Source: Candidatus Melainabacteria bacterium
Lineage (GTDB): Bacteria; Cyanobacteriota; Vampirovibrionia; Gastranaerophilales; Gastranaerophilaceae
Length of the DNA stretch: 64,000 nucleotides
Assembly (NCBI GenBank): GCA_003258735.1
Contig: QHME01000006.1
Location: 22,518 to 86,517 of the forward strand
Direction of reading: 5' to 3'
Shown: positions 1,982 through 29,056 of the stretch, one piece after another
How positions within the stretch are numbered: position 1 is the stretch's first letter
Layout of the letters: the number at the start of each line of letters is the position of its first letter
The notes under the pieces: model-generated
What the model saw: only the letters and a program-made list of their open reading frames with translations
The model's database searches: none
Told to the model about the DNA's origin: nothing
Program-made: the position numbers and the translations under genes

Positions 1982-2497
1982 ATGTGCAAATTTAAAAAAG
2001 TTGATTCAAAAGTAATTCTCCTAACACCTCAAGAGCTTTCTTTTATAAATAATTGTATAAAAAATTATTCAAAATATTTTCAAGATGATTTTGCTTTTAT
2101 TCCTAAAAATATTTTTGAAATTCCAAAAATTTTACCAAATAACTTTTGGTTGATTTTGAATTTTTATAACAAGCCGATGGGTTTTGTCTATTTAGATAAT
2201 TTTATCGGTAAAGAAACTCGCTTATATAGTGCAGAATTGACAACATGTTTTGCTAAATGTGCTTGGGGTGATTTTACTAAATACAGTGCAAAAATCTTTT
2301 TGAAAAAATGTTTTGATGAATTTGGGCTAGAAAAAATCAAAGCCCAAGTTTATCCTGACAATTTTAGAGTGAAAAATTTGCTCAAAATTTGCGGATTTAC
2401 TCACGAATCAACATTACAAAAAGAAACTCTACGCAATGGTAAGCCTCAAAATATTGAAGTTTACGGATTGTACAGAAATTATTACTACAAAAAATGA
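1982..2497 (+). CDS. GNAT-family N-acetyltransferase-like protein
   Basis: 171 aa. The C-terminal half (AQVYPDNFRVKNLLKICGFTHESTLQKETLRNGKPQNIEVYGLYR) matches the GNAT beta-strand/helix pattern (v.p.N.rs..l..k.GF..eg.l......g...d...y.l). Confidence 0.4.
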   Translation: MCKFKKVDSKVILLTPQELSFINNCIKNYSKYFQDDFAFIPKNIFEIPKILPNNFWLILNFYNKPMGFVYLDNFIGKETRLYSAELTTCFAKCAWGDFTKYSAKIFLKKCFDEFGLEKIKAQVYPDNFRVKNLLKICGFTHESTLQKETLRNGKPQNIEVYGLYRNYYYKK

Positions 2498-2504
2498 GGT
2501 AAAT

Positions 2505-6547: not shown

Positions 6548-6910
6548 TTAACTTGGATTTGGAATAGGACTCATTTCTCCTAAAAAAATTAACATCCAAG
6601 TTCCAAAATACATTAATACTGCGATAGGAATATATATTCCTATCGCTAAAATTTTAAATTTATTTATTTGATTTTCTTTTATAAAACAATGTAAAAAATT
6701 CAAAACTGCAATACTGTATACATTAAAAACAATACAACTTAATATTGATTGTACTCCTGTTGGAATTGAAAATAAAAATGTTGTGCCACTGAATGGTACG
6801 AAAGACACTGAAAAAAGTGCACCAAGCATTAATAGCAAAAATACACAATTATAAAATAATATAGCAAAAATGATTATTATAAAATACAATGTTAATAATT
6901 TTTCTTTCAT
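6548..6910 (-). CDS. small polytopic membrane protein, paralog 1
   Basis: 120 aa. Clear paralog of 6922..7272 (MKEKLLTLYFIIIIFAILFYNCVF versus MKNILLKLYFGIIIFAMLIYNTALF) with a shared C-terminal region. Confidence 0.45.
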   Translation of the reverse strand: MKEKLLTLYFIIIIFAILFYNCVFLLLMLGALFSVSFVPFSGTTFLFSIPTGVQSILSCIVFNVYSIAVLNFLHCFIKENQINKFKILAIGIYIPIAVLMYFGTWMLIFLGEMSPIPNPS

Positions 6911-6921
6911 AACCCCTCTAC

Positions 6922-7272
6922 TTAGTCCACCAACGGAACTACCTCTTTAAATAATAATGCCATTATCCCCAAAGTCAAAATTACAATAAATGGAATATAT
7001 GCAAAAATCACCAAAATTTTGAATAAGTTTGATTTCTTACCTTTGATAACGTCATATAAAAATTTAAAAGCAATAACGCTATAAAAATTAAATATAGAAA
7101 AACCTAATATAAACTGCACTATCGCCGGAATTGCAGAAATTAAAGTTTCGGGTTTGAATGGCGAAAAACACACTTGAATAAACTCACACATTACAGAAAA
7201 TAATGCAGTATTATAAATTAGCATAGCAAAAATGATTATTCCAAAATATAATTTTAATAATATGTTTTTCAT
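6922..7272 (-). CDS. small polytopic membrane protein, paralog 2
   Basis: 116 aa; tandem paralog of 6548..6910. Confidence 0.45.
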   Translation of the reverse strand: MKNILLKLYFGIIIFAMLIYNTALFSVMCEFIQVCFSPFKPETLISAIPAIVQFILGFSIFNFYSVIAFKFLYDVIKGKKSNLFKILVIFAYIPFIVILTLGIMALLFKEVVPLVD

Positions 7273-12453: not shown

Positions 12454-12652
12454 GGAAAAATTGTAAATGATATAGGGGTAGTGTGACTCTTTAAGCTTTA
12501 GCGGAGTCCCATAATTTTTTACTCTTGCAAAAGCTTTCTAATTCATGTAATTATCCTAATAATAAATCAATATAATAGAGCGTTTTATCTAAAAAAATGG
12601 TGTTCTAGATTATAGAACACCTCAAATACCTCTTCTTTATATAAATATATCC

Positions 12653-14484: not shown

Positions 14485-15231
14485 TTAGTTGTTTCTGCTT
14501 TGAAGTTTTGCAAGTAGTTTAAGCAATTCTATATACATCCAAACAATTGTAACCATCAAAGAAAATCCAAAAAACCATTCATAATCTTTGCTTGCTTGAC
14601 CTTGGAAACGCTCAATTGAGTCAAAATCGACAATCAGGTTAAATGATGCTACAGCAACACACACAAGACTAAAACCTATGCCAATCAAGCTGTTTGAGAA
14701 AATTTGCGGAATTGAATGGTTAAAGAAACTCAAAACAACTTGTAATAAATAAATCCCTGCAATTGCAAGTGTTGAGTTAAAAATTACCATTCTAAATTTG
14801 TCAGTGCATTTTACAAGTTTTGTCTTATATAAAATAAACATGCCAAATAATGCTAGCATTGTACCCATTGCGGCTTGTGGAGCAATTCCTGGATATGCCA
14901 TATTGAACATTGCAGAAATCCACCCAAGGAATAATCCTTCACACATTGCATATAATGGAGTTGTTATAATTAGAAATTTGTTTTTAGGTGCAAAACAAAT
15001 AATTATCGCAAGAATAAATCCTACAATTGAACCGCCTTGACCTAGCATGATTGCTTTATCCGCAAATCCTGTTAATGTCAGATACCATGTGTAGGCAAAA
15101 GTTACTGCCATCAATGCTCCTAGAACACATGTTTTTAAAATAGTACCATTTATTGTCATGGCATGTTCACTATCTAATGAATTAAATGAAGAAGATTTTA
15201 AAATTCCTTCTCTTAAAACCGGATTAGCCAT
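14485..15231 (-). CDS. Bax-inhibitor-1/YccA (TMBIM) family membrane protein
   Basis: About 248 aa from the ATG at 15231 (RBS GGAGTGA). Seven predicted TM helices and a charged C-terminus, typical of the BI-1/YccA family. Confidence 0.6.
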   Translation of the reverse strand: MANPVLREGILKSSSFNSLDSEHAMTINGTILKTCVLGALMAVTFAYTWYLTLTGFADKAIMLGQGGSIVGFILAIIICFAPKNKFLIITTPLYAMCEGLFLGWISAMFNMAYPGIAPQAAMGTMLALFGMFILYKTKLVKCTDKFRMVIFNSTLAIAGIYLLQVVLSFFNHSIPQIFSNSLIGIGFSLVCVAVASFNLIVDFDSIERFQGQASKDYEWFFGFSLMVTIVWMYIELLKLLAKLQSRNN

Positions 15232-15364
15232 ATATATCACTCCTTTCAATATCACCTAATTCATTGATATAATAGCATATAAAACGAAAATCTCAATTGT
15301 CTGAGAAAAATTTTTAAAAAAGGGCTTTACAATATATTTTTTTTGTTATACACTAATTACATAA

Positions 15365-15436
15365 TCCTCAGTAGCTCAATGGCGGAGCATTCGACTGTTA
15401 ATCGAAGGGTTGCTGGTTCGAGTCCAGCCTGGGGAG
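15365..15436 (+). tRNA. tRNA-Asn (anticodon GTT)
   Basis: Cloverleaf: acceptor TCCTCAG/CTGGGGA, D-arm GCTC-AATGGCG-GAGC, anticodon stem TTCGA/TCGAA with loop CTGTTAA, T-arm GCTGG-TTCGAGT-CCAGC, discriminator G. CCA is not encoded. Confidence 0.9.
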
Positions 15437-15898
15437 TTTTTTCTATTATTAGGGCAAGAATTAGTTTCAAGCCCTTTTTTAGTGCCTGTTTCAAGAGTTC
15501 GATTGTTGGCATTTTTTTGTTCCAAATTGTACTGATTTTCTATTATTGTTTGGAATATCGGCTTTAGTTTTATATCAAAGTTTTTATCTTTATATGTGAT
15601 TAGTACGCTTTAACATTTCTAACCAAAATAATTTTCCGTTAGTTTTCTTTAAAAAATGAACTTATTTGTCCTTTTAATGTCTAAAAACAACTTATTCCAA
15701 AACAGAACTTCGGCAATTACTATTTGTTTTTAAAACAAAAATTTATGCCGAAGGGAAAACAAAGCTAACGAAGTTTAATCTAACTTTCTGGCAATTTTGT
15801 GGCAAAATACCGGCATTAATGAGAAACCTTGCTAACAGCTTTGAATCTCGTCCCAATAAAATCTTTACCTGCTAATATAACAAAACATTCGCAGAGAT

Positions 15899-15994
15899 GT
15901 CACTGACGCGAGTTTGCAGGTAAGTTCAAGCGTATTAGCATAAACTTTCTACAATTAAAACTCTAATTCTCTTAAAACTCGCGTGAACAGTGAC
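15899..15994 (+). repeat. about 95-nt hairpin-forming intergenic repeat, copy A (candidate sRNA/MITE)
   Basis: 5' arm GTCACTGACGCGAGTTT pairs with 3' arm AAACTCGCGTGAACAGTGAC. A conserved roughly 60-nt loop contains TTCTACAATTAAAACTCTAATTCTCTTAAAA. A second copy lies at 23204..23296. Confidence 0.6.
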
Positions 15995-16045
15995 AAAACA
16001 AATTTTTATAATAAATACTACACTAGAATCGGATATTTACATTGG

Positions 16046-16720
16046 CTACTTCATAAAATATACCATGCAAGGGCGCCCGCCGGTATCGTAATTTATTTGT
16101 TCTATAACTTCACTGTTTTTTGTTAAATAGTGCATGTATTTTCGAACCGTAACTTTTGAAATATCCAAAAATGCGGCAATCTGTTCTGATGTATGTCCGC
16201 TATTTGTATCTTCTCTTAAGTATTCGCGGATTTTGTCTAATGTCTTTTCTTGAATACCTTTTGGAAGTTCAAAATTATTATTCCCAAAATGTTCGCTATT
16301 CATAATTTCGTCAATTTTTTTCTGATCCAGAACGCAAACATTATTTTTTTGAACTCTACACTCAACGAATTTGTCCAGTGCTTGTTGAAATCGTTCTTGT
16401 ACAAAAGGTTTGACAAGGTAATCAATGACCCCAAAGTTTAAAACCGTATCAAGGGTATTTTTATCATTTGATGCCGTAACCATAATTATATCAGTATTAA
16501 TTTCTTCCGTTCTGATTTTTTTTAGCAAAGATAAACCATCTAACACTGGCATATAAACATCAAGGATAGCCAAATCCACTTGATTTTCTGACAAATATTT
16601 GAACGCATCATTCCCGTTCCTGAAAGATTGAACAACATAAAAACGGGAATCTTGCTCAACATAATGAGTATTTATCATTGCAACCATAGGGTCATCTTCT
16701 ACGATTAAAACCTTATACAT
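16046..16720 (-). CDS. two-component response regulator, CitB/DcuR family (receiver + C-terminal HTH)
   Basis: 224 aa. The receiver domain (VLIVEDDPMVAMI...LDVYMPVLDG...VTASNDK) has the conserved Asp. The C-terminal HTH segment (IAAFLDISKVTVRKYMHYL) is typical of the DcuR/CitB family. Confidence 0.8.
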   Translation of the reverse strand: MYKVLIVEDDPMVAMINTHYVEQDSRFYVVQSFRNGNDAFKYLSENQVDLAILDVYMPVLDGLSLLKKIRTEEINTDIIMVTASNDKNTLDTVLNFGVIDYLVKPFVQERFQQALDKFVECRVQKNNVCVLDQKKIDEIMNSEHFGNNNFELPKGIQEKTLDKIREYLREDTNSGHTSEQIAAFLDISKVTVRKYMHYLTKNSEVIEQINYDTGGRPCMVYFMK

Positions 16721-16730
16721 TTATTACCTC

Positions 16731-17534
16731 TTATTCATAATATTCAGGTGCTAATTTCATTGTTTGGAAAAATTCCCAATCGTGAGCAGGAAAGACTTTT
16801 GCATTATATTTTTTAGCCAAATTTCTTACTTTTTCGATTGATTTTAAGAAACTTACACTATCATACATAAAACCACTCATTTTGGCAGGTGGTCCAAAAA
16901 TTTCTGATGTATAAACGCAATCTTGAGGAAGAATTATAGTTTGTCCTTCAAGATGAACAACAAGCCCTAAGAGATTTGGAGTATGACCGGCAAGACAAAC
17001 TACTTCAACCCCTTTTGCAAGTTCAAAATCCTCATCAACCAAATGATATTGTTTTACGGGTGCTTCCAAATCTCCTTTTATATAACCGCCATGAGTTTCT
17101 CTATCAGGGTTCATGTGAACTTTTGCAAGTCCATATTTGTAATCTTCCCCAGGAACATAAACATCAGCGTGAGGGAATAAATTGATATTTCCTGCGTGGT
17201 CTAAGTGCATGTGAGAAAGTACAACAGTTTTAATATCTTCCGGTTTAACACCGCAAAGTTTAAGTTGATTTTCCAATCTTTCTTCATCTTTTTGATAAAG
17301 CGGATAAACTTCTTGCATAGTTTTGGGCCAATAACCGTTCATAGCTTCAGGGTTTGAGCCTGTATCATATAAAATATAACCATCATCTGTTTCAATCAAA
17401 TAAGCCATTACAGGCAGTTTAATCCATTCATTTTGAACATGCGGATTAGAGCGTGTTCCAAGTGTTGCACATGCAACAACGGTATTTTTATCGGTTTCTA
17501 AATACCCTGTATTTAGTGCGTAAAGTTTCATCAT
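16731..17534 (-). CDS. MBL-fold metallo-hydrolase, AiiA-like (N-acyl-homoserine-lactonase-like)
   Basis: 267 aa. The HxHxDH motif (LSHMHLDHAGN) closely resembles the AiiA-type SHLHFDHAGG motif. Downstream His/Asp ligands are present. Confidence 0.7.
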   Translation of the reverse strand: MMKLYALNTGYLETDKNTVVACATLGTRSNPHVQNEWIKLPVMAYLIETDDGYILYDTGSNPEAMNGYWPKTMQEVYPLYQKDEERLENQLKLCGVKPEDIKTVVLSHMHLDHAGNINLFPHADVYVPGEDYKYGLAKVHMNPDRETHGGYIKGDLEAPVKQYHLVDEDFELAKGVEVVCLAGHTPNLLGLVVHLEGQTIILPQDCVYTSEIFGPPAKMSGFMYDSVSFLKSIEKVRNLAKKYNAKVFPAHDWEFFQTMKLAPEYYE

Positions 17535-18517
17535 TTCCCTTCTTTCTTAAATTTAACGGTGAATTTTGTTTCTATTTCCATTTCTGACGTAACTGAAATT
17601 TTACCGTTATAAGTTTCAATCAATGATTTAACAACAAAAAGTCCCGTTCCTCTTGAATTACTTTTTGTTGAAAATCCGTCTTTGAATATCTTTTTCAAAT
17701 TAGATTTTTTTATTCCGTTGCCATTATCGCTTACGACAATTTTTATTTCTTTTGGCGTTGATAAAATAGATACATATATTTTTTTGTTGGAAACATCTGT
17801 TGAATTTAGTGAATCCATCGCATTTTCGATTAAATTTCCAAGCACTGTTATAAAAACATCTGACGGAATTCTTGTATCGTTTTCTTCCAGTGAACTTGAT
17901 GAATCCAATGCAAAATGGATGCCAAGTTCTGATGCTCTAGCAAATTTCCCAATCAAAAGAGCGGCAATTGATGGAATTTTAATTTGTTTAATAATGGTGC
18001 TTATTATTTCTTTTTGTACCATACTGACATTCATAATGTATTCAACTGCTTCATCGTATTTTTTCATTTGGATTAAGCCTAAGATTACATGTAATTTATT
18101 AACAAAATCGTGATTATTTGCTCTCATTGATTCGACAAGATGTTTAACCCCGGTCAAATTTTCTGCAAGTTGTACGACCTCAGTTCTGTTTCTAAAAACA
18201 GCAAATGCTCCAACGATTTCACCATTATCATAAATTGGCATTCTATCAGAAATTACGTAATCATTTTTTAATGATTTCATCTGCACATTGAATTCTTTTT
18301 TGCCTGTCGTTAAGAGTTCACCTAATCTTGATGCAGGATAAATCTCATTCAAATCTTTACCGATAGGTTCACTTTCTGTTATATGCAGCATTGGAATTGC
18401 TGATTTGTTTATAAATATAACTTTTTTGTTTTTATCAATTGCTAAGATGCCTTCCTCTAATGCCATAAGGATATCTTCACGCAATTTAAACATTTCAAGT
18501 AATTTATTTTCATCCAT
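17531..18517 (-). CDS. cytoplasmic sensor histidine kinase, CitA/DcuS-like (PAS + SpoOB-type phosphoacceptor + HATPase_c)
   Basis: 328 aa with no TM segments. N-terminal PAS-like region; H-box region NHDFVNKLHVILGLI; C-terminal GHKL ATPase motifs (DNGNGI, GFSTK...GTGLF). Overlaps the MBL gene by 4 nt. Confidence 0.75.
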   Translation of the reverse strand: MDENKLLEMFKLREDILMALEEGILAIDKNKKVIFINKSAIPMLHITESEPIGKDLNEIYPASRLGELLTTGKKEFNVQMKSLKNDYVISDRMPIYDNGEIVGAFAVFRNRTEVVQLAENLTGVKHLVESMRANNHDFVNKLHVILGLIQMKKYDEAVEYIMNVSMVQKEIISTIIKQIKIPSIAALLIGKFARASELGIHFALDSSSSLEENDTRIPSDVFITVLGNLIENAMDSLNSTDVSNKKIYVSILSTPKEIKIVVSDNGNGIKKSNLKKIFKDGFSTKSNSRGTGLFVVKSLIETYNGKISVTSEMEIETKFTVKFKKEGK

Positions 18518-18551
18518 AATTTTATTTTACCTTGAAATTACAACTTTGCTA

Positions 18552-20066
18552 TTAAATATTAGGAAATTTATACGCATCTTCAATATCAACAGGCATTTCC
18601 TTGTACTCACAAGTGTTTATAGCCTTATCAAGATAATCGTACAATTCCTGTTTAAATTTCGGATGTGCACAATTTTCGATAATTGTTTTGGCTCTTTCTA
18701 TAGGGTCTAAACCTCTCAAATCTGCAACCCCTTGTTCTGTAATAAGTGCGTGGATTTCATGGATTGTATGGTCAACGTGACTAACAAGTGGAACAATACA
18801 AGAGATTTCTCCATTTTTTGCAGTAGATTTTGTGATAAAAATTGATAGTCCAGCATTTTCGCAATAATCGCCAGAACCGCCGACACCATTCATCAAACGA
18901 CAACCGTTAATGTATGAAGAATTAGTGTTACCATAAATATCTGCCTCAATAACTGTGTTAATCGCAATTATACCAAGTCTTCTGATAACTTCGGGGTGGT
19001 TACTGATTTCTTGCGGTCTTAGTACAATTTTATCTTTATATTTTTCAAAGTTTTTAAAGAACTCATCAATCTTATCCCAAGAGATTGTCAAGGACGTACC
19101 CGATGCACATTTAACTTTTCCTGCCTCAATAAGGTCGAAAATTGAATTTTGCAAAACTTCTGAATATACTGTTAAATCTTCAAAATCAGAATCTTTCAAA
19201 CATTCTAAAACTGCATTTGAAACACTGCCGACACCTGCCTGAATGGGAGGAAGCGGATTACACAATCTTTTATGTTCAACTTCATTTTTCAAAAAGTTAA
19301 CCAAATTTTTAGCCATAGCATCAAATTCCGCATCAGATGGTACAACTTTCCTTCCATTATCCGGAATTGTGCTGTGAACAACAGCAACAACTTTATCAAA
19401 ATCACATTTTATATAAGGTGTTCCAATTCTATCGTCAACTTTTGTAATTGGAATAGGTTTTGTATATGGAGGATTTTCAGGAGAATAAACATCATGAACC
19501 CCTTCTAAAGACGCTGGAACATAAGTGTTTACTTCAATTATAATTTTGTCCGCACATTCTGCATATATGTTAGAAGTACCAACAGAAGTTGTCGGAATAA
19601 TATTTCCGTTTTCATCAATCGCAGTTGCTTCAATTATTGCAACATCAACATGGTTTAAGAAATTTCTTTTTACCCATACAGGCATCAAACCAAGCGGAAC
19701 ATCATGATAGCCGACTTTCCCGTCATTAATCGCATTTCTCAAATCTTTATTGGTTTGGTAAGGAATACGTTTTTTTAAAGCTCCTTTTCTTGCAAGTTCA
19801 CCATCAAACTCATCTCCGAGAGAAGCTCCTGAATAAACTGTTAAATCAAGCTTTTCACCGTTATCTGCACGTTTGGCAAGCTCTCCTGCAATAACTTTAG
19901 GATACCCTGCAATCGTAAAACCACTGACACCAAGTGTCATATTAGGGTTTATAAACTTTGCAGCCTCAGCCGGTTCCATAACTTTAGTTAAATATCTTTT
20001 ATCTCTAATCCTTTTTTCAAATTCTTTGTCCACAGTCTTTACCTCACTTACTCTTTCATTTACCAA
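18552..20066 (-). CDS. cat1: acetyl-CoA hydrolase/transferase family enzyme, Cat1-like succinyl-CoA:acetate CoA-transferase
   Basis: 504 aa with an apparent TTG start. Extensive similarity as remembered to the Clostridium kluyveri Cat1 family across the protein: EKRIR...GVSGFT..GYPK, KRIPYQTN, DVAIIEATAIDENGNIIPTTSVGTS, LRPQEISNHPEVIRRLGIIAINT..E.DIYGN.NSS, NGVGGSGD, and VPLVSHVDHTEHE..ALITEQGVADLRGL. Confidence 0.8.
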   Translation of the reverse strand: MVNERVSEVKTVDKEFEKRIRDKRYLTKVMEPAEAAKFINPNMTLGVSGFTIAGYPKVIAGELAKRADNGEKLDLTVYSGASLGDEFDGELARKGALKKRIPYQTNKDLRNAINDGKVGYHDVPLGLMPVWVKRNFLNHVDVAIIEATAIDENGNIIPTTSVGTSNIYAECADKIIIEVNTYVPASLEGVHDVYSPENPPYTKPIPITKVDDRIGTPYIKCDFDKVVAVVHSTIPDNGRKVVPSDAEFDAMAKNLVNFLKNEVEHKRLCNPLPPIQAGVGSVSNAVLECLKDSDFEDLTVYSEVLQNSIFDLIEAGKVKCASGTSLTISWDKIDEFFKNFEKYKDKIVLRPQEISNHPEVIRRLGIIAINTVIEADIYGNTNSSYINGCRLMNGVGGSGDYCENAGLSIFITKSTAKNGEISCIVPLVSHVDHTIHEIHALITEQGVADLRGLDPIERAKTIIENCAHPKFKQELYDYLDKAINTCEYKEMPVDIEDAYKFPNI

Positions 20067-20244
20067 TAATTTATCATATTGATAAAATTTGTATGTACTA
20101 ACGAAATTAAAAAAAGAGTTTGGAAAGTAAAGAAAGTTTTAAATAACGCAAAAAAATTTTTATACTTACAAAAGAATGTACAAAATTGAATTACAAAACT
20201 AACATATTGCTATAGGTTGAAATTGTAAGAAAGGAAATATAAAA

Positions 20245-21630
20245 ATGGAAAACGAAATTAGTGCAGAAGAATTGATTAATTCGTTAGTTGAAAAAGCTCA
20301 TAAAGCTCAACAAGAATTTGAATCATTTTCTCAAGAACAAACAGATGCTATTGTTAAAGAAATTGGTAAAGTCGTTTATGATAGAGCTGAAGAATTAGCC
20401 AGAATGACAGTTGATGAAACTAAAATGGGTGTTTATGAAGACAAAGTTGCAAAATGCCACGGTAAATCAAAATGTATTTGGAACAGTTTGAAAGGCAAAA
20501 AATCAGTAGGGATTATTGAAGAAAATAAAGAAACAGGAATTATTAAAGTTGCAAAAGCAAAAGGTGTAGTTGGTGCAGTAACCCCTGTAACAAATCCTGT
20601 TGTAACTCCAATGTGTAATATTATGTTTGCTATTAAAGGTCAAAACGCAATTATTATTGCTCCGCACCCAAGAGCAGAACATGTAAACAAATACGTTGTA
20701 GATCTGTTTAGAGAAATTTTGAAAAAACACAACGCTCCTGTTGATTTAATTCAAACAATCGAAAAATCATCAATTGATGCTACAAATGAATTAATGAAAA
20801 AAGTTGATGTAGTTGTAGCAACAGGCGGTGGCGGTATGGTTAAAGCTGCTTATTCATCAGGTCACCCTGCATTAGGTGTTGGTCCTGGTAACGTTCAAGT
20901 TATTATGGATAGAGGAATTGACTACGAAGATGCCGTTAAGAAAATTATCATCGGCAGAACTTTTGATAATGGTATCATTTGTTCAGGTGAACAAGCCGTA
21001 TTCATTCCAAAAGAAGATTTTAATAAAGTTCTTGACTTGTTTAGAAAAAACGGCGTATTTGTTGTTGAAGATGAAGCATCAATTAAGAAATTTGCTGATA
21101 CAATCTTCCCTGAAAACGGTCCAATCAATAGAAAAATTGTTGGTCAATCTGTTCAAACAATTGCAAAACTTGCTGATGTTGAAGTTCCGGAAGGTACAAG
21201 AATGATTTTGATTAAGGCAAGGGCAATCGGTAAAGGCAACGGCGAACCTTTATGTCGTGAAAAAATGTGTCCTGTAATGATTACTGCTCCTTACGATACA
21301 TTTGAAGATGCTATTAAACTTGCTCAATCAGATTTGGAATACGAAGGAAAAGGTCATACAGCATCAATTCATTCAAATGATATGGAACATGTTCGTTATG
21401 CAGGTGAAAATTTGACTGTAAGTCGTTTAATTGTTAACCAATCCTCATCAACAGGTGCAGGCGGCAGTTTGTATAATGGCTTTGCTCCAACTACAACATT
21501 AGGTTGTGGATCTTGGGGTAACAACAGTATTTCAGAAAACTTGAATTACACTCACTTAATTAACGTTTCTCAAATCGGACTTTATAATAAGGATAAAAAA
21601 GTTCCGACAGATGAAGAAATTTGGGCTTAA
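20245..21630 (+). CDS. sucD: CoA-acylating aldehyde dehydrogenase (SucD/EutE/PduP-like; putative succinate-semialdehyde dehydrogenase, acylating)
   Basis: 461 aa. Aldehyde dehydrogenase fold with the catalytic-Cys motif FDNGIICSGEQAVFIP, characteristic of acylating ALDHs. Adjacent to cat1-like and 4hbD-like genes. RBS AAAGGAAA. Confidence 0.7.
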   Translation: MENEISAEELINSLVEKAHKAQQEFESFSQEQTDAIVKEIGKVVYDRAEELARMTVDETKMGVYEDKVAKCHGKSKCIWNSLKGKKSVGIIEENKETGIIKVAKAKGVVGAVTPVTNPVVTPMCNIMFAIKGQNAIIIAPHPRAEHVNKYVVDLFREILKKHNAPVDLIQTIEKSSIDATNELMKKVDVVVATGGGGMVKAAYSSGHPALGVGPGNVQVIMDRGIDYEDAVKKIIIGRTFDNGIICSGEQAVFIPKEDFNKVLDLFRKNGVFVVEDEASIKKFADTIFPENGPINRKIVGQSVQTIAKLADVEVPEGTRMILIKARAIGKGNGEPLCREKMCPVMITAPYDTFEDAIKLAQSDLEYEGKGHTASIHSNDMEHVRYAGENLTVSRLIVNQSSSTGAGGSLYNGFAPTTTLGCGSWGNNSISENLNYTHLINVSQIGLYNKDKKVPTDEEIWA

Positions 21631-21702
21631 ATTTGTTGTTATAATAAATTCCGGATTGCATAATGTAGTCCGGAATTCTCCTAAAAGAAAGGATTTTTAA
21701 TC

Positions 21703-22818
21703 ATGAAACAGTTAATATTAAAACCGGAATTGCATAAATTCCAAACTTGCAAAGAATTTGCAAAAGAATTTGAATTGGGGGAAGATGATTTAATTCTTAC
21801 AAATGAATATATTTTTAATCCATATTTCAAAGAATTAAATTTGCCTGTAAAAACAATTTTCCAAGAAAAATTCGGTGCAGGTGAACCAACAGACATTATG
21901 GTTGATGCAATTATTAATGAAGCCGCAAAATATACTTTCAAAAGAATAATTGCAATTGGCGGTGGTACAATCATTGATATAGCAAAAGTTTTGGCAGTAA
22001 CAAACGGAGAATCTGTCGATAAATTATACGACAAAAAAAATGAATTAAAGAAACATTATGAACTAATTATTATCCCTACAACTTGTGGTACAGGCAGTGA
22101 AGTTACAAATATTTCAATCATCAACAGAACAAGATTGGGTGTAAAAATGGGATTGACTTCGCCTGAAATGTTTGCACAAAAAGCTGTTTTAATTCCTGAA
22201 CTTTTGAAATCATTACCGTTTAAAGTTTTTGCAACAAGTTCAATTGACGCTTTGGTACATTCTGTTGAATCAAGTTTATCCCCAAAAGCAACCGATTATT
22301 CCAAATTATTTGGTTATAAAGCTATTGAAATGATTATCACAAGCTATCAAAGACTTGTTAAAGAAGGTAAAGAAATTTTGCCTGATTTGATGGATACATT
22401 CTTGACGGCAAGCAACTTTGCTGGTATTGCGTTTGAAACAGCAGGTTGTGCAGCGGTTCACGCATTGAGTTATCCATTGGGTGCAAAATATCACGTTCCA
22501 CATGGAGAAAGCAATTATGCCGTATTTACTGGTGTTTTGAAAAATTATATGGAAATTAAACAAGATGGCGAAATCGCAACTATGAATGAATTTTTAGCAA
22601 ACCTTCTTCATTGCGATGTAAAAGTAGTTTATGAAGAACTAGAAAACTTGTTGAATTCTGTATTGCAAAAGAAACCTTTGCACGAATACGGTGTAACTGA
22701 AAAGGATGCAGAAGATTTCGCTGAAAGCGTAATGAAAACTCAAGGGCGTTTGATGGCAAATAATTTTGTTGTATTAGATTATGATAGAGTATTAAAAATT
22801 TATAAGGAGTTGCTATGA
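21703..22818 (+). CDS. 4hbD: iron-containing alcohol dehydrogenase, 4-hydroxybutyrate dehydrogenase-like
   Basis: 371 aa. Fe-ADH signature IAIGGGTIIDIAK and metal-binding His cluster (VHALSYPLG...HVPHGESN). Its size and neighbourhood match 4HbD of the succinate-reduction pathway. Confidence 0.7.
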   Translation: MKQLILKPELHKFQTCKEFAKEFELGEDDLILTNEYIFNPYFKELNLPVKTIFQEKFGAGEPTDIMVDAIINEAAKYTFKRIIAIGGGTIIDIAKVLAVTNGESVDKLYDKKNELKKHYELIIIPTTCGTGSEVTNISIINRTRLGVKMGLTSPEMFAQKAVLIPELLKSLPFKVFATSSIDALVHSVESSLSPKATDYSKLFGYKAIEMIITSYQRLVKEGKEILPDLMDTFLTASNFAGIAFETAGCAAVHALSYPLGAKYHVPHGESNYAVFTGVLKNYMEIKQDGEIATMNEFLANLLHCDVKVVYEELENLLNSVLQKKPLHEYGVTEKDAEDFAESVMKTQGRLMANNFVVLDYDRVLKIYKELL

Positions 22819-23123
22819 GCTTATTAGAAGCCGGTATGATGGCAAGCTTTGGATTAAGTTGGCCGATTGCAGCATACAAAACTTATAAATGTAAATGCGT
22901 ACATGGAAAAAGCCTTACTTTTTCATATTTAATTCTATTTGGATATATTTGTGGAATTTTAAATAAACTTTTGCATAGTAATGACTATGTAATTTGGATA
23001 TATTACGCAAATGCAGCGTTTCTGTTGCTAGATATGTTTTTGTATTACAGATATAAAAATAATCCGGCCCAAAAAACTGCCGAACTTCCGATAGAAATAA
23101 ACGAAGAGGTGGAAATTGATTAA
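22815..23123 (+). CDS. small 3-TM membrane protein, PQ-loop/SemiSWEET-like
   Basis: 102 aa; start overlaps the 4hbD stop (ATGA coupling). The pattern FGLSWPIAAYKTYKCK...GKSLTFSYLILFGYICGIL resembles the SemiSWEET/PQ-loop half-transporter motif (FlGLlsPlPQi.ki.ktKst.gis...). Confidence 0.35.
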   Translation: MSLLEAGMMASFGLSWPIAAYKTYKCKCVHGKSLTFSYLILFGYICGILNKLLHSNDYVIWIYYANAAFLLLDMFLYYRYKNNPAQKTAELPIEINEEVEID

Positions 23124-23127
23124 CAAA

Positions 23128-23158
23128 AAACAGCATACTTTAAGTGTGCTGTTTTTAT
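23128..23158 (+). terminator. rho-independent terminator after the sucD-4hbD operon
   Basis: Hairpin AACAGCATACTT-TAA-GTGTGCTGTT followed by TTTTATTG. Confidence 0.6.
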
Positions 23159-23203
23159 TGTATTAAATTTTTATTTTGTTGATATAGCAAAATATTCACA
23201 GGA

Positions 23204-23296
23204 AGCCACTGACACGAATTTGCAGGTGTGCTTCAGTGTATTTGAATAGTTTCTTACAATTAGAACTCTAATTCTCTTAAAATTCGCGTGAATAGG
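23204..23296 (+). repeat. about 95-nt hairpin-forming intergenic repeat, copy B
   Basis: CACTGACACGAATTTGCAGGT...TTCTTACAATTAGAACTCTAATTCTCTTAAAATTCGCGTGAATAG. About 80% identical to copy A (15899..15994). The stem changes GAGTTT/AAACTC to GAATTT/AAATTC are compensatory. Confidence 0.6.
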
Positions 23297-23518
23297 GGCT
23301 AAAAGAGATTTATCATTACTCCCACAAATTATTAATCGGGATTGTAAACATTCCATTTGACCAAGTCATTGTTCGTTCCCTAGTATAAGCCTGCAAATTT
23401 GTATAAAATAAGTAAGCGATTTTGTATAATATATTTAAACTGGCAAAAACGTTATGTATTGTATCTTTCCATAAAAAATATTTGTTTTGTATGTTTTTTT
23501 TATTATAATGTTATCGGA

Positions 23519-26500
23519 ATGAGGAAGCTAAAATCTAGACGAAGAAAAAATATATTATTATATTCAACTATTCTATCGTTAATTGTTGGAAGTAATAGTT
23601 TTGCTATAGCAAAAGATGTTACTGTTTCTTCTGGTGATGAATTAAAAAAAGTAATACAAGAAATAACTGCTGAACCTACGAATACCAATATATACTTTGC
23701 AAATGACATTGATATTTCAGGGAAGGATATTACTGTTGGAACTAATGTTATTGAAATTGACGGTGGTGGAAAGAGCTTAATAAATGAAAAGGATTCCAGA
23801 TTTAAATTTGTTGACAATAGAAAATCAAGCTTAACTCTAAAAAACTTAAAATATGTTGGGAAAAACTCAAGTATAAATGTAAATAATGCAAATACAACGA
23901 TATCATTGGAAAATGTTGATATTAGTGGTAGAACAACATCTGCTGTCAAAGATGGACCTGTTTTGTTTTTAAAAGATTGTGATACAACCTTGAATAAGGT
24001 TAGTGTTTCTTCAAGCATAGTAAATATACAAAACGACAGTATTTATGGTGGAATTATAAATATTCAGTCGTCAAAATCCAAAGGAGTTATAACAGATTTA
24101 ATAGATAATCAAATAACATCAGCCGGGAATGTTTTAGGTGGATTAATTTATAACAGACGAACTCTAACTCCTGTTGGTGGCTTGAATTTGGACGGTAACG
24201 TAAATGAAAATAAAGTTACTGCGAAAGTTAATATTTTCGGTGGAATTTTAAATAATGAGGGTAGCAGTATTCAATCCATAAATTGGAATGAAGTAAAAGG
24301 TAATACTATAACAGCTACTAATAATGCGGTTACAGGTGGGTTTATACAAAACAAACTTGGAACGATAGATAACTTGTATATTAAGTCTTTTTCTGACAAT
24401 ACAATTATTTCTAATTCAAAAATTGATGGAGGCTTGATATACAATGAAGGTGGAACAATTAATGGGACCTTGAAAATTGAAGAAATAACTGGAAATACTC
24501 TAAAGGCAAAAACTGATTTCAACGGGTTAATTACAAATGTTGCTGGGAACATTAATTCAATTTCAATAGATTCTGTTTCAAATAACAAATTTGAGATGAA
24601 TTTTTTACGTGGAGGAGTAATAAATCTTCAGGGTGCAAAAGTCAATGACATAAATATTGGGGAAATTAATAATAACAATATTATTGGAATTAATGATAGC
24701 ACTATTATTGGTCGTGAAAATTCTACTTCTACCGGTTTTGTACTGTATTTAAGAGAATTGCCAACAGATGCCAAAATTTCATCTAGTATCGGAAATGTTA
24801 CAGTAGGTCAAATTAAAGATAATACTATTGAATCGACAAATATAACTTCTCTGTTGCTGCGAACTGCACTAGTTCCAGTGGAAGATGCTATTGTTATATC
24901 AAAAAACGGTAATATAACTGTTGATGATATTAGTAATAATAATTTGGTTGCTATTGATTGTGATGATAATGCTCGTGGCGGAATTATTTATAATTTTCTT
25001 TATGGTGGCGTGAAAACAATAAATACTACGGTTAGTCTTGGAGATATAAATTTAAAACAGGTTTCTAATAACCGTTTAGAAAGCACAATTTCAACATCAA
25101 CTTCTGGCGAAACTAAGGCTTTGGGTGGCAGGCATGCTTCCGGAGGAATTATTGCAAATTCAATCCAATCTTGTCAGGGAAATGCTATTATTAAAAGTAT
25201 TAATGGTGAATATATCGGCAATTCACTTGTTTCAAAGTCAAAAATAATGGATGCAAGTGGTGGTGTAATTTCCAATTCTATTAATGGACAAGGAAATGCC
25301 TTTGTCGGAATTGGTTATACACTTGATGAAAATAATAAAATAATTCCTGTCGCAGATGCGATTTTGGGAACTTACAAAAATAACTCTGTGCAAGCAACAG
25401 AGCTTTCCTCAAACGGCGGTGTTATAGCAAACCATGTTGAAAAAAGTCTGGAGCATAATGATATTGCTCAAATAGGGAATATCAAAGCTTATTTTAGCGG
25501 AAACTATGCTTTATCCACTAAAAATAGTGCTTACGGTGGAGCAATAGCAAATTTTTACGCAAAATCAGAAGAAGATTATAAAAATGCTATTATTGATTCA
25601 ATAAATAGCATTTTTGAAAATAACTATGCAAAAACAGAATCTGCAGATGCTTCAAAAGGTGCGTATGGTGGTGCAATTGTTAATACTGCAACTATTAAAG
25701 CAATAAATAATTCTATTTTTAAAAACAATTATGCAAGCTCTATTAATGGAAGTAGTGCGCATGGTGGTGCAATATACACAAGACAAGATTTGGTTATTAA
25801 TGCGAATAATAATGGATTGTCTGAATTTACAGGCAACTATGTTTCAACTGACGGTGGAGCGACAAAAAATTATGAAGCAATTAATGTTGGGGCATCAGGA
25901 AAAACTCTTACATTAAATGCAACTACAAACGGTACAATATTATTAAATGATTATATTAATGGTGTAAGTGGTTATAATGTTTTATTGACCGGTGATTCTA
26001 CAGGAACAATTAAACTTTTTGATAACGCAGATATTAAAGGTGGGGCGAATGTTACTGTTGATGGAGATGTTGTTATTGATACGGCAGATGGGGTAATTCA
26101 AAATTTTTCAGAATTTAATTCATTAAATTCAAGTGAAAGTGCTAGATATAACATTGATATAGATTTGTCAAAAGCAAATGGTAATAAGTTAGATTACGCA
26201 GTAGGTGACAAAATTTCTGATGGATTTACAACAAAATCGACTTCAAATGGTGGTTCTGTTACTTTGGATAGGTTGAATTTTGTAAATGCTTCATTAAATG
26301 AAGATATCTTAAATAAAAATTTGAAAGTTCAAATAATTCAAAATAATGATAATACAAATAATTTACAACTTGCGTTGAGTGAAAAATTAACACCATTTGT
26401 TTCCTCTGCCGGAATAATATCACAGATTGTAAAAACAGAAACGAAGGATTTGACACCAACGGTCAATTATAAGGACATTTTTGGTGAAATTATAACAACA

Positions 26501-29056
26501 AAAGATATTTATGGAACATTAGGGCTTGGCACGACTAATACAACCAACGATAGTCTTAATATAACTGTTACCAAAGTTGAGTCCAATACCGTTGCAACAA
26601 AGGCTGATGCTTTGGTTGCATTGACTAATACAGAACTAAAGGGTGCTGATGGAAGTATTTTAGACAAGACACTAAATCTCTTTGATGAAGATACTCTTGG
26701 GAATAAAACTCCTGCGAAATACAAGATATCAGATAATCTGGGAACTACTTATAAAAAGTTAAATATTGTTGGTGCAACAAAAATGGATTCCTCAGGAAAA
26801 CTTATTTTATCGGAATTAGATTTGAATGGTAAATCAGGTTTTGTGGTGAATGCGGATTCTACATTAACGCTTTCTGATATAAATTTGAAAGGCAATGAAT
26901 CCGTTATTAATAACGATAGTGGCTTTTTAATTTTTGCAAATAATAATATTGTTGACGGAAAAGTTACAGGGGCGCAAGCGACAAATACTGGGGTTTTGAA
27001 TATTGATGCTGATAATTTAGATGTTGCATTAACAAATGATGGAATTTTGAATTTGGGAATGGGTTCTGTAACAAAAGAAATTACAGGTACCGGAACAACA
27101 AATATTTTAGGCAATGTAAAAAATAATGTTTCAATATCACAAGGGGTAAATGTTAGTTCAACTGGAAATTTGACTGTTGGTGCAAATATTTGGGATTTAG
27201 TAAATAATGGAACAGTCAATGCAAATTCTAGTAATCTATATGGTACAATAAACAATTCCGGAACATTGAACTTGTCAGGAACATTAGATAAAGTTATTGC
27301 CGGAAATGGGATAACTAAAGTTTTAGGAAGTAGTTTAACTTTAGTTGATGGTGCTGAGATTAAAGGTTCTTTAGAGGCAAATAATCAAACTCTAAATGTT
27401 TTGGCAACAAATACTTATAGTATGTTTAACAAAGTGAAGGTGAATTCAGGAACAATTAATCTAATTAACAATAACATTAACGACATGTTTGCTAATTCAT
27501 TGAGTATAAACGGAAATGTTAATTTGTTATTAGATGCCGATTTGGCAAATTCTTCAATGGATAGACTTCCTTCAAAAACGGTTGCTAATTCTTTTATTAC
27601 AGTTAGAGGTATAAATTTATTATCAGATTCTAAAACCGAAAGAACATATATTCCATTTGCTTATGATAGCTTTAAAGATAAAGTCCAAACAAATATAACA
27701 GAGGTTGGAAAGGGAGTTGAAAACCCATATCAAACGACTACATTTGCCCCAATTTATAAGTATAATGTAAGTTATAATCCGAGTAACGGTTATTTCTTAT
27801 TTTCTCGAGGTGGAGGGCAAAGCTCTGCTGATTTCAATCCTGCGGTATTATCTAGTGCTGTGAATTCTCAAGTTGGAGCATATTCTGCAGTAAACGAAAC
27901 TTTTAATTACGCATTTAGACATTCGGATTATTCATTTATGCCGTTGCCAAAGAGAATTAGAACTTTATCTAATCAATATGCAATAACTGATTCTCAATCA
28001 ATTCGGTATGAAAGAGAATATTCAAAAGCTGGTGGTATTTGGTATCAACCATACGCAAATTTTGAAAATGTTGGATTATCTAACGGACCAAGAGTTGATG
28101 TTCAATCTTACGGTTCATTGGTAGGTGGGGATAGTGCTTACAAACAACTTAAAAAAGGTTGGGGAACCGTAACAACCCCTTATATTGGATACAATGGAAC
28201 GTCTCAACATTACTCTGGAGTTTCAACCGTTACAAATGGTGGAATATTAGGTTTAACTCAAACTTTTTATCGCGGAGATTTCTTTACAGCATTAACGGTA
28301 AATGCCGGTGCAAGTGTCGGTGAATCAAATACAATGTATGGAAAAGAAAATTATACAGCATTAATGGCTGGTGTTGGTAGTAAAACCGGATATAATTTTG
28401 AGTTTAATAATGGTAAATTTATTATTCAACCTTCTATGCTGATGGCATATACTTACGTAAATACTTTTGATTATACAAATGCTTCTGGTGTAAAAATATC
28501 TTCAGACCCACTACATTCAATCCAAATACATCCAACTATTAAATTTATGGGTAATGTTGGTAAAGGTTGGCAGCCGTATGCAAGTGTTGGTATGGTTTGG
28601 AATATTTTAAATGATACCAGAGTTACAGCGAATGATGTTCGCTTACCGGAAATGAGTATAAAACCTTATGTTGAATATGGTGTGGGGTTACAAAAAAGCT
28701 GGCATGAAAAATTCACAGGATTTATTCAAGCAATGCTGAGAAATGGTGGGAGAAATGGTGTTGCATTGACATTTGGTTTTAAATGGTCTTTAGGTAATGA
28801 GAGTAAACCTGTTGAAAAAGTTCAGAATAATTTTAAAAATGTCGTAAAAACATCTATTGTCCCAGTTCAAAAGGTTGAAGAATCTTCCCAAAGTTTTGTG
28901 CAATTACCAATAAAAACAATTCAAAGAGTTAATACTGATTCCCAAAACCTAATTCAACCTTCAAATAACAGCAGGTTAAATATTTTAACACCACAACAAG
29001 TGGCGCAGAGGGCAAATATTGTTGCTATAAACAACACAACCAAAGCTAAATTTTGA
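23519..29056 (+). CDS. giant type Va autotransporter/adhesin-like protein (beta-helical passenger + C-terminal beta-barrel with an extra C-terminal tail)
   Basis: About 1845 aa from the ATG at 23519, giving the signal peptide MRKLKSRRRKNILLYSTILSLIVGSNSFAIA. The ORF-track start 23399 adds a non-secretory leader. The passenger is Gly/Asn/Thr-rich with repeated GG[VI]I.N motifs. The region around residues 1500-1800 has alternating-hydrophobic beta-strands ending ...ALTFGFKW. This is followed by a polar tail of about 85 aa whose final residue is F. Confidence 0.7.
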   Translation: MRKLKSRRRKNILLYSTILSLIVGSNSFAIAKDVTVSSGDELKKVIQEITAEPTNTNIYFANDIDISGKDITVGTNVIEIDGGGKSLINEKDSRFKFVDNRKSSLTLKNLKYVGKNSSINVNNANTTISLENVDISGRTTSAVKDGPVLFLKDCDTTLNKVSVSSSIVNIQNDSIYGGIINIQSSKSKGVITDLIDNQITSAGNVLGGLIYNRRTLTPVGGLNLDGNVNENKVTAKVNIFGGILNNEGSSIQSINWNEVKGNTITATNNAVTGGFIQNKLGTIDNLYIKSFSDNTIISNSKIDGGLIYNEGGTINGTLKIEEITGNTLKAKTDFNGLITNVAGNINSISIDSVSNNKFEMNFLRGGVINLQGAKVNDINIGEINNNNIIGINDSTIIGRENSTSTGFVLYLRELPTDAKISSSIGNVTVGQIKDNTIESTNITSLLLRTALVPVEDAIVISKNGNITVDDISNNNLVAIDCDDNARGGIIYNFLYGGVKTINTTVSLGDINLKQVSNNRLESTISTSTSGETKALGGRHASGGIIANSIQSCQGNAIIKSINGEYIGNSLVSKSKIMDASGGVISNSINGQGNAFVGIGYTLDENNKIIPVADAILGTYKNNSVQATELSSNGGVIANHVEKSLEHNDIAQIGNIKAYFSGNYALSTKNSAYGGAIANFYAKSEEDYKNAIIDSINSIFENNYAKTESADASKGAYGGAIVNTATIKAINNSIFKNNYASSINGSSAHGGAIYTRQDLVINANNNGLSEFTGNYVSTDGGATKNYEAINVGASGKTLTLNATTNGTILLNDYINGVSGYNVLLTGDSTGTIKLFDNADIKGGANVTVDGDVVIDTADGVIQNFSEFNSLNSSESARYNIDIDLSKANGNKLDYAVGDKISDGFTTKSTSNGGSVTLDRLNFVNASLNEDILNKNLKVQIIQNNDNTNNLQLALSEKLTPFVSSAGIISQIVKTETKDLTPTVNYKDIFGEIITTKDIYGTLGLGTTNTTNDSLNITVTKVESNTVATKADALVALTNTELKGADGSILDKTLNLFDEDTLGNKTPAKYKISDNLGTTYKKLNIVGATKMDSSGKLILSELDLNGKSGFVVNADSTLTLSDINLKGNESVINNDSGFLIFANNNIVDGKVTGAQATNTGVLNIDADNLDVALTNDGILNLGMGSVTKEITGTGTTNILGNVKNNVSISQGVNVSSTGNLTVGANIWDLVNNGTVNANSSNLYGTINNSGTLNLSGTLDKVIAGNGITKVLGSSLTLVDGAEIKGSLEANNQTLNVLATNTYSMFNKVKVNSGTINLINNNINDMFANSLSINGNVNLLLDADLANSSMDRLPSKTVANSFITVRGINLLSDSKTERTYIPFAYDSFKDKVQTNITEVGKGVENPYQTTTFAPIYKYNVSYNPSNGYFLFSRGGGQSSADFNPAVLSSAVNSQVGAYSAVNETFNYAFRHSDYSFMPLPKRIRTLSNQYAITDSQSIRYEREYSKAGGIWYQPYANFENVGLSNGPRVDVQSYGSLVGGDSAYKQLKKGWGTVTTPYIGYNGTSQHYSGVSTVTNGGILGLTQTFYRGDFFTALTVNAGASVGESNTMYGKENYTALMAGVGSKTGYNFEFNNGKFIIQPSMLMAYTYVNTFDYTNASGVKISSDPLHSIQIHPTIKFMGNVGKGWQPYASVGMVWNILNDTRVTANDVRLPEMSIKPYVEYGVGLQKSWHEKFTGFIQAMLRNGGRNGVALTFGFKWSLGNESKPVEKVQNNFKNVVKTSIVPVQKVEESSQSFVQLPIKTIQRVNTDSQNLIQPSNNSRLNILTPQQVAQRANIVAINNTTKAKF

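Follow-up and report, generated by a model that had tools for sequence, protein, structure and literature searches.

The window, as we call the whole 64,000-nucleotide stretch of Candidatus Melainabacteria DNA analysed here, contains two related intergenic sequences, copy A and copy B, with a seven-gene cluster between them. Copy A lies between a tRNA-Asn gene and the stop codon of a response-regulator gene (16046, opposite strand). Copy B follows the terminator of a PQ-loop gene by 48 nt and precedes the start codon (ATG) of a 1845-aa open reading frame (ORF) by 219 nt. The features of the locus, in window coordinates, are:

15365-15436, + strand: tRNA-Asn (ARAGORN and Rfam), 463 nt upstream of copy A
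15600-15879, no strand assigned: conserved non-coding block of ~280 nt, found by homology beside copy A, and not copy B, in most loci
15870-15881, + strand: putative extended -10-like box of copy A, TGcTAATAT (15870-15878) or alternatively TATAAC (15876-15881), read from the sequence
15886-15998, + strand (predicted): copy A module (alignment, folding and diversity; covariance model)
16046-23123, no strand assigned: 7.3-kb cluster of seven genes (Pfam)
23126-23156, + strand: intrinsic terminator of the PQ-loop gene (terminator scan), just upstream of copy B
23178-23188, + strand: promoter-like box of copy B, TGtTGATAT / TATAGC, aligned in register with the A box and a poorer -10 match
23195-23304, + strand (predicted): copy B module (alignment and blastn; covariance model)

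Blastn aligned copy A (15880-16010) with copy B (23188-23311) at 78.7% identity over 127 nt on the same strand, and a MAFFT alignment of the two gave one common block with both limits of similarity visible. An earlier, sequence-only reading of this DNA had described two intergenic copies, about 80% identical and in the same orientation, with copy A about 460 bp downstream of tRNA-Asn, and our measurements agree on each point. It had also placed copy B within the 5' region of a giant autotransporter gene. Copy B is near the 5' side of the 1845-aa ORF (23519-29056) but outside it, and the autotransporter label is at best putative: neither residues 1-1000 nor residues 1001-1845 matched a Pfam domain. 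The core sequence ACAATTARAACTCTAATTCTCTTAAAA occurs exactly twice in the 64-kb window, versus zero occurrences expected from 100 shuffles. No third copy was found in the window by blastn, a repeat finder or a covariance model, which scored copy A at 149 bits and copy B at 125.5 bits.

Occurrence in gut Melainabacteria

One genome per species was scanned for a 19-mer, which gave 26 loci: 20 were chance 19-mer matches, and six carry the whole element. The six genomes belong to Candidatus Gastranaerophilales HUM_12, two Candidatus Melainabacteria, and three uncultured gut bacteria or metagenome-assembled genomes (MAGs; UMGS1585, MGYG-HGUT-00408, and SRR1747056_bin.5). A gapped-pattern scan added 19 further loci in metagenome contigs, several labelled human gut. 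Our alignment comprises 27 distinct full alleles from 25 other loci, which we refer to by L numbers. In 290 kb of related DNA, the covariance model, which was built from these alleles, found one copy per locus, plus a syntenic copy B in some, and no extra copies; the element is therefore low-copy. Counted across relatives, as the sequence-only reading had proposed, it amounts to one or two copies per locus and one locus per species genome.

Searches outside this group returned little. Loci at orthologs of the AAA-ATPase gene that adjoins copy A in some strains (57-66% amino acid identity) were without the element, as were loci at response-regulator orthologs (78-92%), save for a B-like remnant in L051 (12.7 bits). 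A pattern scan of viral contigs and blastn against phage and plasmid sequences found no similar sequence. Rfam 15, run over the whole window at gathering thresholds, reported three tRNAs only and nothing on the module. Permissive Rfam scans of 15700-16100, 23100-23560, and 15437-16045 gave a single match on the module, of chance level (20 nt, GNAS-AS1_3, 10.3 bits, E 9.7). The Rfam/Infernal comparison suggested earlier thus matched no described RNA family at either threshold, and a full-text literature search found no description of a non-coding RNA of non-photosynthetic gut Melainabacteria. Judged by these comparisons, the repeat is an undescribed, lineage-specific non-coding element restricted to a narrow group of gut Melainabacteria. 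Because the clade is narrow and neighbouring genes are 91-99% identical across it, conservation alone is weak evidence of function.

Structure and constraint of the module

The unit common to all contexts is ~110 nt long and runs from about ATTCGCAGAG to GTGACAAAA. Its parts follow in a fixed order: a leader, the 5' arms of two stems (P1 and P2), a near-invariant GCAGGT, a variable loop, the core CTACAATTAGAACTCTAATTCTCTTAAAA, and the P2 and P1 3' arms. In the window, these parts are:

15886-15898: copy A leader
15899-15905: copy A P1 5' arm, GTCACTG
15906-15915: copy A P2 5' arm, ACGCGAGTTT
15916-15921: copy A GCAGGT
15922-15948: copy A variable loop
15949-15977: copy A near-invariant core
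15975-15984: copy A P2 3' arm, AAACTCGCGT
15988-15994: copy A P1 3' arm, CAGTGAC
15995-15998: copy A AAAA tail
23205-23211: copy B P1 5' arm, GCCACTG
23213-23221: copy B P2 5' arm, CACGAATTT
23222-23227: copy B GCAGGT
23253-23282: copy B core
23280-23288: copy B P2 3' arm, AAATTCGCG
23293-23299: copy B P1 3' arm, TAGGGGC

The long-range stems described in the sequence-only reading are present in both copies (ACGCGAGTTT with AAACTCGCGT in A, CACGAATTT with AAATTCGCG in B). We found a further outer stem that it had not listed, GTCACTG with CAGTGAC in A and GCCACTG with TAGGGGC in B. In copy A, the long-range stem is the minimum-energy fold (z -3.1 on the + strand and -4.1 on the - strand). The minimum-energy fold of copy B differs from the long-range stem and is no better than shuffles (z -0.9). 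Across alleles, RNAalifold recovered the closing stem with 17 pairs, and 98.3% of stem cells are paired on this structure, many of them as G-U pairs. When the partners were slid by 1-3 columns, pairing fell to 21-53%.

Does covariation point to selection on this structure, as had been claimed? The G-to-A and C-to-T difference between the copies is a true compensatory pair (alignment columns 35:104), and to this extent the claim stands. It is, however, a single event common to the B lineage, and changes on both sides are limited to two pairs: 35:104, from G-C to A-U in three B alleles, and 28:114, to A-U in L025. The covariation score was reached by 3 of 500 shuffles, on a measure that the tool flags as unreliable for related sequences, and the two measures that the tool regards as robust were unremarkable (119 of 500). 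An all-against-all comparison of covarying columns was swamped by lineage effects. Covariation lends the stem weak support, because related sequences can give such scores without any structure. In the L001/L030 variant, pairing with the standard 3' arm survives the replacement of the 5' arm (CACGCCAGTTT with AAACTCGCGTG), which would fit selection for the stem. Stem changes tolerated only through G-U pairing number seven sites on the + strand versus four on the - strand, a difference that is not decisive. Small ORFs in the module and the upstream block are short on both strands and show no conservation: a 13-aa ORF in copy A stops early, and an MPVFCH-type ORF shifts frame across indels.

We computed nucleotide diversity (pi) by segment for 24 A-type alleles, and separately for eight alleles unlinked to the conserved gene cluster, since the very uniform adjoining cluster could mimic constraint on the 3' half of the module. 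The values are:

Leader: 0.185 (24 A-type alleles), 0.27 (8 unlinked alleles)
5' arm: 0.104 (24 A-type alleles), 0.107 (8 unlinked alleles)
GCAGGT: 0.038 (24 A-type alleles), 0.089 (8 unlinked alleles)
Variable loop: 0.162 (24 A-type alleles), 0.27 (8 unlinked alleles)
Core: 0.049 (24 A-type alleles), 0.07, or 0.04 without L038 (8 unlinked alleles)
3' arm: 0.067 (24 A-type alleles), 0.104 (8 unlinked alleles)

The pattern persists in the unlinked alleles. The leader and loop change about as fast as synonymous sites in the neighbouring AAA gene, in which the third codon positions of L038 and L041 show 82% identity. The arms and the 27-nt core vary far less than the leader and loop, which argues for real selective constraint. 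Copy A is intact at every locus except for the 5' variant of L001/L030.

A plasticity hot spot around the module

The module has been retained amid changing neighbours, with at least seven distinct settings downstream and more than eight upstream. Upstream of copy A lies tRNA-Asn in the window, L028, and L031, and a core AAA-ATPase in L025, L027, L032, L038, and L041. Elsewhere this position is held by a large ATPase pair (L037) and a HipBA-like pair (L036), the former called McrBC-like and both so named by sequence inspection only, by a TIR protein with a restriction enzyme (L023), by an HTH/HigA-like protein (L001), or by a Mu-type transposase (L043). The downstream genes on the opposite strand are the response regulator of the cluster, a DUF4840-like gene, an HxlR regulator, and DUF6119; those on the same strand are a D5_N primase-helicase element, which lies directly 3' of the module in L027, and the giant ORF (window and L028). 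In L051, a tyrosine integrase (Arm-DNA-bind_4 and Phage_integrase) starts 20 nt past the B-like remnant and is followed by an RVT_1 gene (2296-3535); this remnant keeps the promoter region, leader, and 5' arm, and its interior is different. L055 has a tRNA-Ser at the position held by copy B in the window, and in L054 no module separates the tRNA-Asn from the response-regulator gene directly beside it. The site and its junctions are thus of the kind seen at tRNA and small-RNA genes that mobile elements exploit.

Between loci with unrelated upstream genes, homology begins near 15602, at the edge of the ~280-nt block. This block had no Rfam match and may represent a second RNA or else a regulatory region. 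An AT-rich palindrome lies within it (15708-15753). A sigma-54-like motif, TGGCA-N6-TGGCA (~15822-15837), was considered and rejected, being deleted in L015 and L023.

Two further observations concern the wider neighbourhood. A 53-nt sequence found just 3' of tRNA-Asn (window 15433-15507) occurs twice in the same orientation in L037 (~983-1035 and 12536-12588), ~11.5 kb apart; the two copies bracket the McrBC-like genes, the module unit, and the cluster, and look like the att-type repeats of a tRNA-Asn-associated island. In L049 (3005-14564), which comes from a distant relative, McrBC, a UvrD/PD-(D/E)XK helicase-nuclease, and a DnaB_C and RVT_1 pair surround the AAA-ATPase ortholog; this defence-rich neighbourhood has no module.

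Pfam assigned four genes of the cluster to the - strand (a response regulator, an MBL-fold protein, a PAS histidine kinase, and a CoA-transferase of the acetyl-CoA hydrolase/transferase family) and three to the + strand (an aldehyde dehydrogenase, an Fe-alcohol dehydrogenase, and a PQ-loop protein). We infer from these assignments a resemblance to a succinate-semialdehyde/4-hydroxybutyrate pathway. Identity in ten other strains is 96-99% over the cluster as a whole and 98.5-99.4% over the response-regulator gene, but only 87-98% over the adjoining A module. Between the window and L028, a background of ~1 difference per 100 nt rises to peaks of 24 and 9 per 100 nt at 15800-15999 and of 8 per 100 nt at 23200-23299, and diversity across the module drops from about 0.12 to 0.01.

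The cluster is absent from the single-module loci L038, L041, and L022, where the module is followed directly by DUF4840 and/or HxlR; the order in L035 is copy A, cluster, copy B, DUF4840. The L038 module and L035 copy B have in common their 3' half, an unusual core variant (GTCA), a GAATAG arm, and their flank. The two kinds of locus would fit recombination either way: inside a single module, by which the cluster was gained, or between A and B, by which it was lost. In more distant relatives (L051-L055), the cluster is intact as a block in wholly different neighbourhoods. The edges of the shared segment lie in or close to the modules and are scattered (left, 15459-15906; right, 23172, 23237, and 23306), and no circle-type junction, joining the 5' part of B to the 3' part of A, was found among the metagenome matches. 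For these two reasons, we favour homologous recombination among diverged alleles over one site-specific crossover, and reject a single site-specific integration as the sole mechanism for the cluster.

Over its 5' half, copy B does not differ among the cluster-bearing strains. Its core has diverged in L028 and L035; L029, L033, and L039 have lost the interior, and in L037 the whole copy is deleted. Having diverged, decayed or disappeared elsewhere, it looks like a dispensable paralog. The B-type core of the window occurs in no metagenome contig, though the scan pattern would match such a core, and all eight differences between the window and L028 in 23200-23299 fall where copy B of the window equals the A consensus. 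Because the B copies of other strains carry a diverged core, the identity of the A and B cores in the window may be partly due to gene conversion, with the B core refreshed from A.

A candidate small RNA gene and its alternatives

Signals for transcription were sought on both sides of the module. In A-type alleles, a TGnTAnnAT / TATAAC-like box precedes the leader by ~12 nt. Boxes in the same register occur at copy B (TATAGC), in L012/L034 (TATTTA), and in L001/L030 (TATATT), where the other upstream sequence is unrelated or distantly related, so that a -10-like box keeps a constant register in four upstream contexts of an AT-rich genome. No good -35 element accompanies the boxes, and a consensus promoter scan made no call there on the + strand. 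At the other end, homology breaks off abruptly past G(R)CAAAA, as seen in at least seven downstream contexts. A terminator scan found no intrinsic terminator after copy A or copy B; canonical terminators exist elsewhere in the genome, at 23126-23156 and after tRNA-Met. Since -10-like or T-rich motifs also occur just beyond the 3' end of the module, - strand or two-strand transcription is conceivable. Pairing of the core with 54 translation-initiation regions in the window reached -13.7 kcal/mol at best, inside the tail of the background. The two best duplexes with the core, both non-significant, involve tandem small ORFs on the - strand (6548-7272; 120 and 116 aa), which have in common a 74-nt 5' repeat (6837-6910 / 7199-7272, 81% identical).

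Our preferred reading, which we hold tentatively and at slightly less than even confidence, is that the repeat is a lineage-restricted, low-copy gene for a structured small RNA (copy A) with a paralog (copy B), at a hot spot for insertion and recombination. Conservation, the pattern of constraint, pairing, low copy number, and the hot-spot context are established by observation; we infer transcription of the module, its strand, the RNA ends, and any regulatory role. An RNA of ~105-115 nt would start from a weak extended -10 promoter of its own on the + strand, and its 5' and 3' ends would pair into a bulged closing stem of ~17 bp. This stem would enclose the fast-evolving loop and a near-invariant, mostly unpaired, U/C-rich core, CUACAAUUAGAACUCUAAUUCUCUUAAAA, predicted to be the working surface for target pairing or protein binding. 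Copy A would be the maintained gene and copy B a paralog that is degenerating in other strains. The locus would act as a plasticity hot spot like tRNA and some small-RNA genes, with unrelated DNA abutting its 3' end and defence and mobile genes turning over upstream, and recombination within or between the direct copies could account for the presence or absence of the 7.3-kb cluster. The sequence-only reading had also named a small RNA as a candidate. It is the best reading remaining, given 27 alleles in unrelated neighbourhoods, constrained arms and core, and a -10-like box in the same register.

The bidirectional ryeA/ryeB (SdsR) locus of Salmonella is reportedly a chromosomal small-RNA locus that doubles as an insertion hot spot. 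Like it, the module is a short conserved non-coding locus kept while varied acquired DNA adjoins it, and the -10-like boxes on both flanks make two-strand transcription conceivable here as well. Unlike ryeA/ryeB, with which it has no sequence or Rfam kinship, the module belongs to gut Melainabacteria, its transcription is a prediction, and two diverged copies bracket a metabolic gene cluster.

An unlikely alternative, the strongest of the rivals, is that the module acts at the DNA level, as an att-type recombination site through which the cluster, defence genes, and integrative elements are exchanged. The core holds an imperfect palindrome, ACAATTAG-AACT-CTAATTCT, which could bind a site-specific recombinase, and it is better conserved than all of its surroundings. 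Flanks vary on both sides, some breakpoints lie inside the module (~15906 in L001/L030, 23237 in B copies), and the cluster enclosed by A and B is missing from single-module loci. Yet the breakpoints are scattered over hundreds of bases, which fits homologous-recombination mosaics better than a fixed crossover. The integrase gene 20 nt from the L051 remnant is the one case of a recombinase gene beside the module in ~12 contexts, and the sequence examined at the distal ends of the elements adjoining the module in L027 and L051 contained neither att repeats nor a direct repeat of the module. The B-to-A junction expected of an excised circle did not appear in the metagenome matches, nor did a copy in the viral, phage or plasmid collections.

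Comparison with known integration sites divides in the same way. tRNA and tmRNA genes are integration targets of tyrosine-integrase elements; the module, like them, is a stem-forming element with a sharp 3' boundary, adjoined by an integrase in L051 and by mobile genes in L027, but it is neither a tRNA nor a tmRNA, has no flanking att direct repeat, and its breakpoints are not fixed. Integron attC sites are imperfect palindromes of 60-140 nt that fold into hairpins and are constrained by structure. The module likewise folds, is constrained by structure, and borders exchangeable genes; unlike attC, it has no RYYYAAC/GTTRRRY boxes on either strand and no array, no IntI-type integrase was found among the scanned neighbours, and its "cassette" would consist of seven genes on both strands. 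An integron attC site was rejected on these grounds. As a long shot, the module might be a recombination substrate defined by structure, either a co-opted small-RNA gene or an attC-like site outside any integron. If so, pairs of diverged copies would serve as portable borders by which related gut Melainabacteria gain, lose, and swap the cluster and defence cargo without a linked recombinase.

Less probable than an att-type site, in our view, is that the repeat is a weakly functional or non-functional relic, such as duplicated intergenic DNA or the end of an old mobile element, that looks conserved because the clade is young and recombination or gene conversion has homogenized it. The narrow clade, the divergence, decay or deletion of copy B in several strains, the window B core that equals the A consensus and not the B of other strains (suggesting gene conversion), and the linkage of the core and 3' arm to a cluster of very low diversity in cluster-bearing loci speak for such a relic. 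The same constraint is, however, seen in the eight unlinked alleles (arms 0.10 and core 0.04-0.07 versus 0.27 in leader and loop). Moreover, copy A is intact everywhere but in L001/L030, where the variant arm still pairs, and the element is retained while the genes on both sides change.

It is improbable that the module is a structural 3'-end element or a bidirectional terminator for converging units, with no gene of its own. In three contexts, an opposite-strand gene ends 7-105 nt from the module with no hairpin between, T-rich runs lie ~8-12 nt beyond the stem on both sides, and the - strand fold of copy A is the most stable. But a ~17-bp stem with a 60-nt loop and a U-run 8-12 nt away is non-canonical, and the terminator scan called none. 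Copy B of the window has no converging gene, and a 27-nt near-invariant unpaired core would be needless for a mere terminator.

Three remaining ideas, a miniature mobile element (MITE), a cis-regulatory leader or riboswitch of the giant ORF, and an invertible promoter switch, are very improbable even when taken together; they draw on the inverted repeat around ~60 bp and on the position of copy B upstream of a giant putative surface protein. The Correia/NEMIS, ERIC, RUP, and BOX repeats occur in tens to hundreds of copies, usually with target-site duplications. The module resembles such repeats in its size class (~100-150 nt), imperfect terminal inverted repeat, intergenic position, and possible carried promoter. 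Unlike them, it has one or two copies and no target-site duplication: the flanks of A read …AGAGAT|GTCACTG … CAGTGAC|AAAACA, and those of B likewise have no duplicated bases. For these reasons, we reject the miniature mobile element that the sequence-only reading had offered beside a small RNA; similarity also runs 10-45 nt upstream past the inverted repeat. Against a leader, the genes downstream show no relation to one another and lie mostly on the other strand, and between copy B and the giant ORF there is a separate promoter-like site. Against an inverton, the interior has one orientation in 27 of 27 alleles, 60 bp is very short for inversion, and no recombinase or invertase was found in the window neighbourhood. 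The template and variable repeats (TR/VR) of a diversity-generating retroelement (DGR) and a retron msr-msd were also considered and rejected, as neither the nine ORFs scanned beside A or B (14485-23356) nor the giant ORF encode a reverse transcriptase. DGR hypervariability was rejected because no reverse transcriptase lies nearby and the differences between A and B, mostly transitions of all kinds, are not adenine-specific.

A new mechanism would be at hand only if the module were a recombination site. Read as a small RNA gene, it is a reasonable first candidate for a lineage-specific regulatory RNA in uncultured gut Melainabacteria. It marks a hot spot beside tRNA-Asn at which defence systems, integrative elements, and a 4-hydroxybutyrate-type cluster come and go, and may be of use in annotating these MAGs and in studies of strain variation.
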